64,000 bases of DNA from Escherichia phage vB-EcoP-XT18, in the sequence record OR757434.1. One strand, given 5' to 3'. The position numbers and the translations under genes are program-made. The notes beneath the pieces were generated by a model. That model saw only the letters and a program-made list of their open reading frames with translations, was not told the DNA's origin and made no database searches. Shown one piece after another: positions 63,248 to 64,000 of this stretch; the stretch's first letter is position 1, and each line of letters opens with the position of its first letter.

Positions 63248-63337
63248 AACTGCCCATCTAACCTAATTCGGTGAAACTCTCTATGAGACAATACCGAGCA
63301 AGGACAGGATACTACCACCTTTTTACAGGGAGGTAGT

Positions 63338-63838
63338 ATGATAGAATATAAAAACACTGGTTACTATGTAACCGAGTGTGGAGAGATTATTGGAAAACGT
63401 GGTTGGGTATTAAAGCCTTCAACTACTTCTGGTTATAAAGAAGTCAAGATTTGCGAAAATGGTGAAATTTCTTATAAAGGAGTTCACCAACTAGTAGCTG
63501 AATGTTATATTCCAAATCCTGACAATAAACCAGTAGTTAATCACAAAGATGGAAATAAACTTAACTGCCATCGAGATAATCTAGAGTGGTCAACTTATTT
63601 AGAAAACAGTATACATGCAGTCCAAACAGGATTACAGAAGACTGGAGTAGATCACTATAATGCTGAACTAACTGAATCAGAAGTACATGCAATTTGCAAG
63701 CTTCTGCAAAACGGTTTACCTGTTAAACAAGTTTTCTATGAACTGTTAGATGCTGGTATAATTGTTTATCCAACAAAGATAACTGATATTAAACGTCATC
63801 AATGCTGGAAAGAGATCTCATCTCAATACAGTTGGTAA
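63338..63838 (+). CDS. HNH homing endonuclease
   Basis: VNHKDGNKLNCHRDNLEW HNH motif; GGAGG RBS; adjacent to intron-like core elements. Confidence 0.6.
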   Translation: MIEYKNTGYYVTECGEIIGKRGWVLKPSTTSGYKEVKICENGEISYKGVHQLVAECYIPNPDNKPVVNHKDGNKLNCHRDNLEWSTYLENSIHAVQTGLQKTGVDHYNAELTESEVHAICKLLQNGLPVKQVFYELLDAGIIVYPTKITDIKRHQCWKEISSQYSW

Positions 63839-63839
63839 C

Positions 63840-64000
63840 AGGTTAGTATTCTGTCCGTGTGTAACGACTATCCCCGATGAGTGTAGGGGAGTAGGGCGCA
63901 AGCTAATGGCGTTCGAAATGGTTGGCCTGTACGACGGTACAGGAAGATATAGTCTGTTCTGCATGGCGACATGCAGCAGTTCATAAGAGAACGGGCAGAA
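63840..64000 (+). ncRNA. group-I-intron-like catalytic core (R- and S-like elements, GNRA-capped hairpin); boundaries unknown
   Basis: gtaacgactatcc (R-like, 63861-63873) and aagatatagtc (S-like, 63944-63954) with complementary GACTA/TAGTC for P7; hairpin ctgcatg-gcga-catgcag. Confidence 0.4.

Follow-up and report, generated by a model that had tools for sequence, protein, structure and literature searches.

Why does the primase gene near the end of this stretch of phage DNA stop short of a helicase domain, and what is the endonuclease gene that follows it? The stretch analyzed (the window) comprises 64,000 nucleotides (nt) of DNA recorded for Escherichia phage vB-EcoP-XT18 (OR757434.1). Its primase open reading frame (ORF), at 62309-63247, has Toprim_2 as its only Pfam match and lacks a helicase domain, and an ORF for an HNH protein follows at 63338-63838; these and all other features of the window described below are on the plus strand. 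An earlier reading of the bare sequence (the sequence-only reading) had drawn attention to both ORFs and had proposed that a group I intron carrying a homing endonuclease gene interrupts a primase-helicase gene whose second exon lies beyond the window. The boundaries of the insert, the reading frame that its removal restores and the predicted structure of its core support this proposal. It is very probable that the primase-helicase gene of an Escherichia coli kuravirus is split by a group I intron that encodes an HNH homing endonuclease. The element itself is of a kind ordinary for phages, a typical IA2 intron with an HNH homing endonuclease; the insertion site and the host lineage are new.

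Boundaries of the insert and the restored gene

At its 3' end the window matches Escherichia phage vB-EcoP-XT73 (OR757436.1; Kuravirus, Gordonclarkvirinae) with 99.9% identity; base 75770 of that record corresponds to window base 64000. The end and the start of the circular XT73 record were joined (L001+L002), and bases past 64000 are given here as virtual coordinates. In intronless kuraviruses the primase/helicase is a single gene of 1791 nt encoding 596 amino acids (aa), as in XT32 (L003:3001-4791). About 90 other kuravirus records match this region only across window positions 62309-63242 (query 1-934), and exon 1 is 97-98.5% identical to the opening 933-934 nt of the intact 1791-nt gene in other kuraviruses.

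Comparison of the joined XT73 record with XT32 places both boundaries exactly. Exon 1 (62309-63241) comprises 311 codons, encodes a zinc finger, the Toprim primase part and a linker, and ends in GAG TGG GGT; its sequence stops at ...GCGGAGTGGGGT (63241). Exon 2 begins with ATTCCATATCCGTGG at virtual 64028 (record base 75798), and the sequence after the insert, ATTCCATATCCG, is the same as in intronless XT32, where the two stretches adjoin. The insert is 786 nt long, from 63242 to virtual 64027, and its last 27 nt (GTGTTGCGGCTTCTGTTGAACATTAAG) lie beyond the end of the window. The sequence-only reading was right about the intron but had it begin at 63248 rather than 63242, and the element extends beyond the window by 27 nt. 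Of 97 kuravirus-type records, 96 carry the 60-bp intronless target without interruption. The base before the insert is U and the last base of the insert is G (virtual 64027), as group I introns have at their two splice sites.

Conceptual splicing gives a continuous gp4-like primase/helicase of 596 aa, with G582D as the sole difference from XT32, and continues in frame to the helicase Walker A motif as had been foreseen. The junction separates codons 311 and 312 (phase 0) and coincides with the start of the Pfam DnaB_C match (residue 311); the Walker A motif (GGGVGSGKT) and the DnaB_C domain are in exon 2, past the window. An intein was rejected, as the insert contains stops in the frame of the exon. 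The first of them is TAA at 63245-63247, one codon past the 5' splice site.

GenBank record OR757436.1 is linearized within exon 2, at an internal ATG, and its annotation presents the primase/helicase as two unrelated coding sequences (CDS; bases 1-828 and 74079-75017) with no intron feature. An intron is hinted at only in the note to the endonuclease CDS, which carries the label "# Phage intron". The downstream CDS (record 1-828) is not an intact separate helicase gene with its own start: it begins at an internal Met (virtual 64058) and skips 10 conserved exon 2 codons, IPYPWKTLNE. Automated gene callers start the helicase part at an ATG inside P9 instead. A literature search for an intron in Kuravirus, phiEco32-like phages or XT73 found no paper reporting one.

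Structure of the ribozyme core

The XT73/XT32 comparison, Rfam, BLAST and covariation together define the group I (IA2) intron, which occupies 63242-64000 of the window and runs on to virtual 64027. Its conserved core is complete: P3-P8, the P3/P7 pseudoknot and the P, Q, R and S elements were all located. P1 pairs exon GGGU plus A (63238-63242) with UGCCC (63251-63255) and places a U63241.G63252 wobble at the 5' splice site; the helix was read from the sequence, and RNAfold recovers the stem (-6.5 kcal/mol, z = -1.8). P2 is not present. P3 pairs CUAACC (63258-63263) with GGUUGG (63920-63925), with compensatory changes in 5 of 6 pairs.

The P4-P5 domain (63264-63299) contains the true P and Q elements, AATTCGGTGAAAC (RNA AAUUCGGUGAAAC; 63264-63276) and AATACCGAGC (RNA AAUACCGAGC; 63290-63299). 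The "P/Q-like" sequence singled out by the sequence-only reading, aaagcgggaatctcctgctgg (63167-63187), is exon 1 coding sequence that is also found in intronless relatives (about 97-98.5% identity). P4 pairs UUCGGU (63267-63272) with ACCGAG (63293-63298) and shows compensatory changes in 4 of 6 pairs; P5 pairs UCUC (63278-63281) with GAGA (63285-63288) and shows them in 3 of 4. P6, also read from the sequence, consists of GGACAGGAUACUA (63302-63314) and UAGUAUUCUGUCC (63844-63856), which form 13 base pairs (bp) with one G.U and enclose the endonuclease ORF. Long-range P6 stems likewise flank the ORF in the homologs L009, L013, L060 and L063, and homolog L038 has a short P6 without an ORF at the equivalent place.

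The R element, made up of J6/7 and the 5' strand of P7 (63857-63870), was placed by alignment to the Rfam consensus and is invariant in all nine introns aligned. P7 itself (GACUA at 63866-63870 with UAGUC at 63950-63954) is likewise invariant in the nine. The R-like gtaacgactatcc (63861-63873) and the S sequence aagatatagtc (63944-63954) had both been recognized beforehand, together with the GACTA/TAGTC pairing, and all three hold. The S element consists of J8/7 (AAGAUA) and the 3' strand of P7 (UAGUC), and is the sole exact AAGATATAGTC in the window. Between P7 and the 3' strand of P3 are two hairpins predicted by RNAfold: P7.1 (UCCCC at 63871-63875 with GGGGA at 63886-63890) and P7.2 (GGGCGC at 63894-63899 with GCGUUC at 63909-63914; compensatory changes in 5 of 6 pairs). 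They are joined by a GUA linker (63891-63893), and folding of 63864-63956 yields both. P8 pairs CCUGUAC (63926-63932) with GUACAGG (63937-63943) around the loop GACG; it has compensatory changes in 7 of 7 pairs and is recovered by RNAfold.

The hairpin ctgcatg-GCGA-catgcag at 63959-63976, noted earlier for its GNRA tetraloop, is P9. Its strands (63959-63965 and 63970-63976) are paired in 100% of alignment cells, with compensatory changes in 4 of 7 pairs and a folding energy of -10.3 kcal/mol. Two further helices extend into the joined record: P9.1 (GUUCA at 63979-63983 with UGAAC at virtual 64017-64021) and P9.2 (CAGAAG at 63996 to virtual 64001 with CUUCUG at virtual 64010-64015; compensatory changes in 6 of 6 pairs). 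Applied to short segments, RNAfold independently finds P1, P9 and the domain of P7, P7.1, P7.2 and P8.

Phage IA2 introns have P7.1 and P7.2 linked by GUA and no P2 (PMC3428280). Because the predicted structure matches this description in having P7.1 and P7.2 joined by GUA between P7 and the 3' strand of P3, and in lacking P2, the XT73 intron is assigned to subgroup IA2.

Homologous introns and covariation

BLAST comparisons of the 3' core (63858 to virtual 64027) with known phage introns gave 73-75% identity over about 165 nt (E = 1e-17 to 8e-20) with DNA polymerase introns of T7-like Yersinia phages, the nrdB intron of a Serratia phage and nrdD introns of Vibrio phages. Dozens of phage introns, T4-type nrdB introns among them, share 88-98% identity with the stretch from about 63943 to 63996, which covers S, P9 and the first part of P9.1. 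The S 11-mer with one mismatch has 2 matches in the window, compared with 1.84 expected, and is no rarer there than chance; the evidence resides in the ensemble of features and not in this 11-mer alone. Relatives of the endonuclease in IMG/VR often precede the same core, with the S motif present at 27 of 87 loci. These relatives left the donor untraceable and supplied diverse cores for covariation.

Nine diverse intron cores with simple P5 arms were used, after deletion of their ORFs, and aligned with MAFFT without structure fitting. Cores with simple P5 arms were chosen because pattern-based extraction of P and Q missed about one third of the loci. Under the structure derived from XT73, 90.0% of the cells in this alignment form standard pairs, compared with 36-45% in controls that slide the partners by 1-3 columns, a comparison in which the structure is somewhat favored over the slid controls, as it was derived from XT73 and the set was picked by sequence similarity. 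Double-sided changes occur in 35 of the 57 pairs, and 0 of 500 shuffles reached the observed value on any of five measures. P7.1 is poorly sampled (3 informative rows, with short versions misaligned by MAFFT) and draws its support mainly from folding.

Splicing and alternative readings

In the proposed mechanism, the transcript would fold into P1 and the P3-P9.2 core, and an external guanosine would attack after U63241. The freed 3'-OH of exon 1 would then attack after the terminal G, ligating ...GAGUGGGGU to AUUCCAUAUCCG... in one mRNA for the 596-aa protein. The expected spliced junction is ...GAGTGGGGT-ATTCCATATCC.... That the XT73 intron actually splices is predicted from these sequence features.

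Several observations weigh against an intron that splices and homes. P1 has only 5 bp and its fold only a modest z-score (-1.8), and a by-eye search for P10 gave no convincing pairing. The covariation test carries the advantage for the XT73 structure described above. Co-conversion tracts around the junctions, sought in the assemblies described below, are nowhere longer than about 40 nt. The Rfam group I intron model RF00028 does match at 63750-63976 (E = 0.0027), as the sequence-only reading had expected of a covariance model, but with 22.8 bits the match is under the gathering threshold of 50. This low score is attributed to the ORF of about 500 nt that splits the core. Homologous phage intron loci in DNA polymerase, nrdD and terminase genes, lying between the fragments of split genes, score 27-47 bits on the same model. 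As these also fall under 50 bits, the threshold is uninformative for IA2 introns that bear an ORF.

The intron lies at the boundary between the primase and helicase domains, the 5' splice site is soon followed by a stop, and P9 contains an in-frame AUG; for these reasons the unspliced RNA could have a use of its own. It would give free primase and free helicase and the spliced RNA the fusion, so that the proportion of fused to separate products would depend on how efficiently the RNA is spliced. We consider this quite unlikely. If it were true, splicing would act like the internal start of T7 gp4A/4B, and competition between the Shine-Dalgarno hairpin (see below) and distal P6 might tune splicing efficiency.

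Also improbable, with only a slight chance of being right, is a splicing-dead relic or tolerated gene split, in which the primase (312 aa) and the helicase are made as two polypeptides and the helicase starts either at the in-frame AUG 63971 within P9 or at the internal Met of GenBank (virtual 64058). GenBank does list two CDS, although the start it gives would omit the 10 conserved codons IPYPWKTLNE. The in-frame stop one codon beyond the 5' splice site would fit a split gene, but a stop shortly after the 5' splice site is usual in phage introns. ATG 63971 opens 19 sense codons that run across the 3' splice site into exon 2, and gene callers annotate this frame as a 304-aa DnaB_C protein (L090 3634-4548). 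However, an open frame of 19 codons has a likelihood of about 40% by chance ((61/64)^19, about 0.4) and is probably fortuitous; the ATG is buried in the P9 stem and lacks a good Shine-Dalgarno sequence; and the frame is not conserved in the Yersinia phage intron, where L004 has ATG TAG at this place. Each core helix is intact, as are the U.G wobble and the terminal G, and the core shows covariation with functional relatives, which argues for an intron that splices. That the HNH gene is instead a free-standing homing endonuclease cassette with a fortuitous likeness to R and S, as the abundance of such HNH genes in kuraviruses (PMC9965538) and the chance-level frequency of the S motif with one mismatch in the window might suggest, is effectively refuted by the BLAST matches (E = 1e-17 to 8e-20) to the cores of introns whose host genes have a split annotation, by the full P3-P9.2 structure with its covariation, and by the canonical splice-site bases and exact restoration of the ORF.

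The HNH endonuclease gene

The HNH homing endonuclease gene (63338-63838) encodes 166 aa and lies entirely within the P6 loop. Its product matches Pfam HNH_3 (E = 1.6e-8; 34.5 bits, above the curated cut-off of 24.8), which bears out the earlier identification of the ORF, and also PHROG 59 (4.8e-38). Residues 8-95 match I-HmuI (PDB 1U3E; E = 6.5e-6), the endonuclease of the SPO1 DNA polymerase intron, and H69, N81 and N90 of the XT73 protein align to the catalytic and metal-binding residues H75, N87 and N96 of that enzyme. The two proteins share an N-terminal HNH (beta-beta-alpha-metal) domain and are similar in size (174 aa for I-HmuI and 166 aa for the XT73 protein). They differ in that D74 of I-HmuI corresponds to N68 in XT73 and that the C-terminal, DNA-binding half is without detectable similarity. 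The activity and specificity of the XT73 protein as an endonuclease are predictions.

The endonuclease is not closely related to others in the collections searched. Among 50,697 phage records besides XT73, no best match reached at least 60% identity, and the closest listed match covering at least 80% of its length is 47% identical. IMG/VR holds no relative of more than 46% identity over most of the length. A tblastn search with the intron endonuclease also pointed to another, more distantly related HNH homolog at a different location in the XT73 genome, with matches at two places in the record.

In a local hairpin at 63309-63339, both the GGGAGG Shine-Dalgarno sequence of the endonuclease gene and the first bases of its AUG are paired; the hairpin overlaps the distal part of the 5' strand of P6. 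Its RNAfold energy is -13.7 kcal/mol (z = -4.0), and 0 of 200 shuffles fold as well. Among 13 homologous intron ORFs, the predicted folds pair most of the Shine-Dalgarno sequence (at least 3 of 4-5 bases) in nine and place it in the loop of a stable hairpin (z from -2.8 to -5.2) in three of the remaining four (L043a, L043b and L061). The translation of endonucleases from phage introns is commonly restrained. In XT73 the hairpin may have this role, sequestering the ribosome-binding site and so damping translation of the endonuclease.

Mobility and recent spread

Seven other public contigs encode an identical endonuclease, and the neighboring genes are the same in all of them. Six are Logan contigs (SRR17509921, DRR827090, DRR827092, DRR827094, DRR827172 and DRR827174), and one is from ENA (ERZ27280880). 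In these seven assemblies the intron is at the same site and is 99.7-99.9% identical to that of XT73, whereas the exons differ by 2-3%. Comparison of one of them, L090, with XT73 gives 2 mismatches in the 786 nt of the intron and 43 in the 1791 nt of the exons (Fisher p = 2.4e-5), and L090 and L094 differ from one another at 22 sites in exon 1. The exon differences closest to the junctions are 40 nt away on the upstream side and 6-54 nt away on the downstream side. A scan of IMG/VR with the exact 23-nt pattern of the 5' junction gave 0 matches. Since the intron is far less diverged than its host gene and its site is polymorphic for presence and absence, these sequence comparisons indicate recent homing, with an intron history that appears decoupled from that of the exons.

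In a mixed infection, the endonuclease would nick or cut the intronless allele near GGGGT/ATTCC (slashes mark insertion points), and recombinational repair would copy the intron in. The intronless target of the XT32 type is GAGTGGGGTATTCCATATCCG. That an assembly chimera placed a foreign fragment with intron and endonuclease into the gene of the XT73 record, as its presence in just 1 of 97 records of the phage collection might suggest, is refuted by the same junctions in the seven independent assemblies, from other samples and with different exon backgrounds, and by boundaries that coincide exactly with canonical splice sites.

Comparison with related introns

The DNA polymerase introns of T7-like phages that were compared are those of PhiI/W31 (I-TslI), of the Yersinia phages Berlin, Yepe2 and Yep-phi, and of cyanophage Pf-WMP3 (I-PfoP3I). 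Like the XT73 intron they are IA2 introns without P2 and with P7.1-GUA-P7.2 (PMC3428280), carry an HNH ORF and interrupt a replication gene of a podovirus. Identity is 73% over 170 nt of the 3' core, with compensatory changes between these introns and XT73 in P3, P4, P5, P7.2, P8 and P9.2. They differ in host gene, which is the primase-helicase gene in XT73, and in internal guide sequence (P1). The ORF of XT73 is, in contrast to theirs, wholly in the P6 loop without overlap of the core, and its endonuclease is only distantly related.

A precedent for the host gene is gene 13 of Salmonella phage PVP-SE1 (GU070616), a primase/helicase CDS annotated as a join with an HNH gene, gene 14, inside. 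It shares with XT73 the P4 sequences UUCGGUG/ACCGAGC and a hairpin that sequesters the Shine-Dalgarno sequence, and the HNH proteins are 39% identical over 96% of their length. Its site is in Walker A (GPSGGG/KST), about 25 codons downstream of the position equivalent to the XT73 site (AEWG/IPYPW), its guide sequence is another one, and its host is a myovirus (Vequintavirinae). In the PVP-SE1 locus (L089:2347-3390) and in IMG/VR contig L083 (3300020047_004405), the Walker A motif of a gp4-like helicase is interrupted by an IA2 intron that carries a related HNH gene. Replicative helicase genes look like recurrent homing targets across unrelated phages.

The td and nrdB introns of T4 (I-TevI, I-TevIII) have the same IA2 core, and the S-P9 stretch of XT73 is 88-92% identical to that of T4-type nrdB introns. 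In the T4 introns the endonuclease ORF is, as in XT73, looped from P6, and RNA structure restricts its translation. They differ from the XT73 intron in the family and architecture of the endonuclease (GIY-YIG in td), in having nucleotide-metabolism genes as hosts and in the presence of P2.

A second kuravirus intron, in VTCCBPA_211 (PP989838.1; L088:1548-2286, 739 nt), is in the primase-helicase gene of the same genus and likewise has a group I core (32 bits in Rfam) and an HNH_3 ORF. It differs in its site (DNFG/QNEW; gene position 1247), in its NUMOD4+HNH_3+HTH endonuclease and in that its ORF extends into the core. The canonical U and G splice bases of this intron require that three flanking codons be synonymously changed (GGT CAA AAT vs GGG CAG AAC), which suggests co-conversion or adaptation of P1/P10. 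In four Logan contigs (L091, L093, L094 and L095; DRR827090-DRR827172), a single primase/helicase gene contains both introns: first the XT73-type and, 314 nt on, a VTCCBPA_211-type intron that is 90% identical to that of VTCCBPA_211.

In KBNP1711 (NC_023593.1, L098:1780-2620), LAMP and KarlSchell_Bas89, the annotation gives the DNA polymerase as two CDS with an 'endonuclease' ORF between them. Clear IA2 elements flank this ORF, namely AATTGCTGGAAAGC...CAATCAGCAGC, AGAGACTA, AAGATATAGTCC, a P9 hairpin and CAGTTCATAAGAGAACGG. From these elements, the split DNA polymerase gene of such Gordonclarkvirinae looks like an unannotated intron.

Significance

These findings are conceptually not new. The XT73 record and automated gene calls show one essential core gene as two genes and an endonuclease. 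Primase/helicase is among the five best phylogenetic markers of kuraviruses (PMC9965538), and because of this status unrecognized introns in its gene distort pangenome and phylogeny work on kuraviruses that are candidates for therapy. With the XT73 insertion, the beginning of the DnaB-like domain becomes a new homing site among the conserved replication-gene targets of IA2 introns. With the recent spread of the XT73 intron through E. coli kuraviruses, a second intron in the same gene and a polymerase intron in sister genera, these phages could offer a natural system for the study of intron competition and marker exclusion in podoviruses.

Other features of the window

An E-value scan of the entire window with Rfam for further introns gave only a transfer RNA gene (48183-48254; RF00005, 57 bits), the only other Rfam match in the window. 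Two genes upstream of the primase, with an ORF of 67 aa in between, the ORF at 61670-62089 is gamma-glutamyl cyclotransferase-like (GGACT), a label that is based on Pfam tags of identical neighbors on the Logan contigs and on the annotation of VTCCBPA_211.

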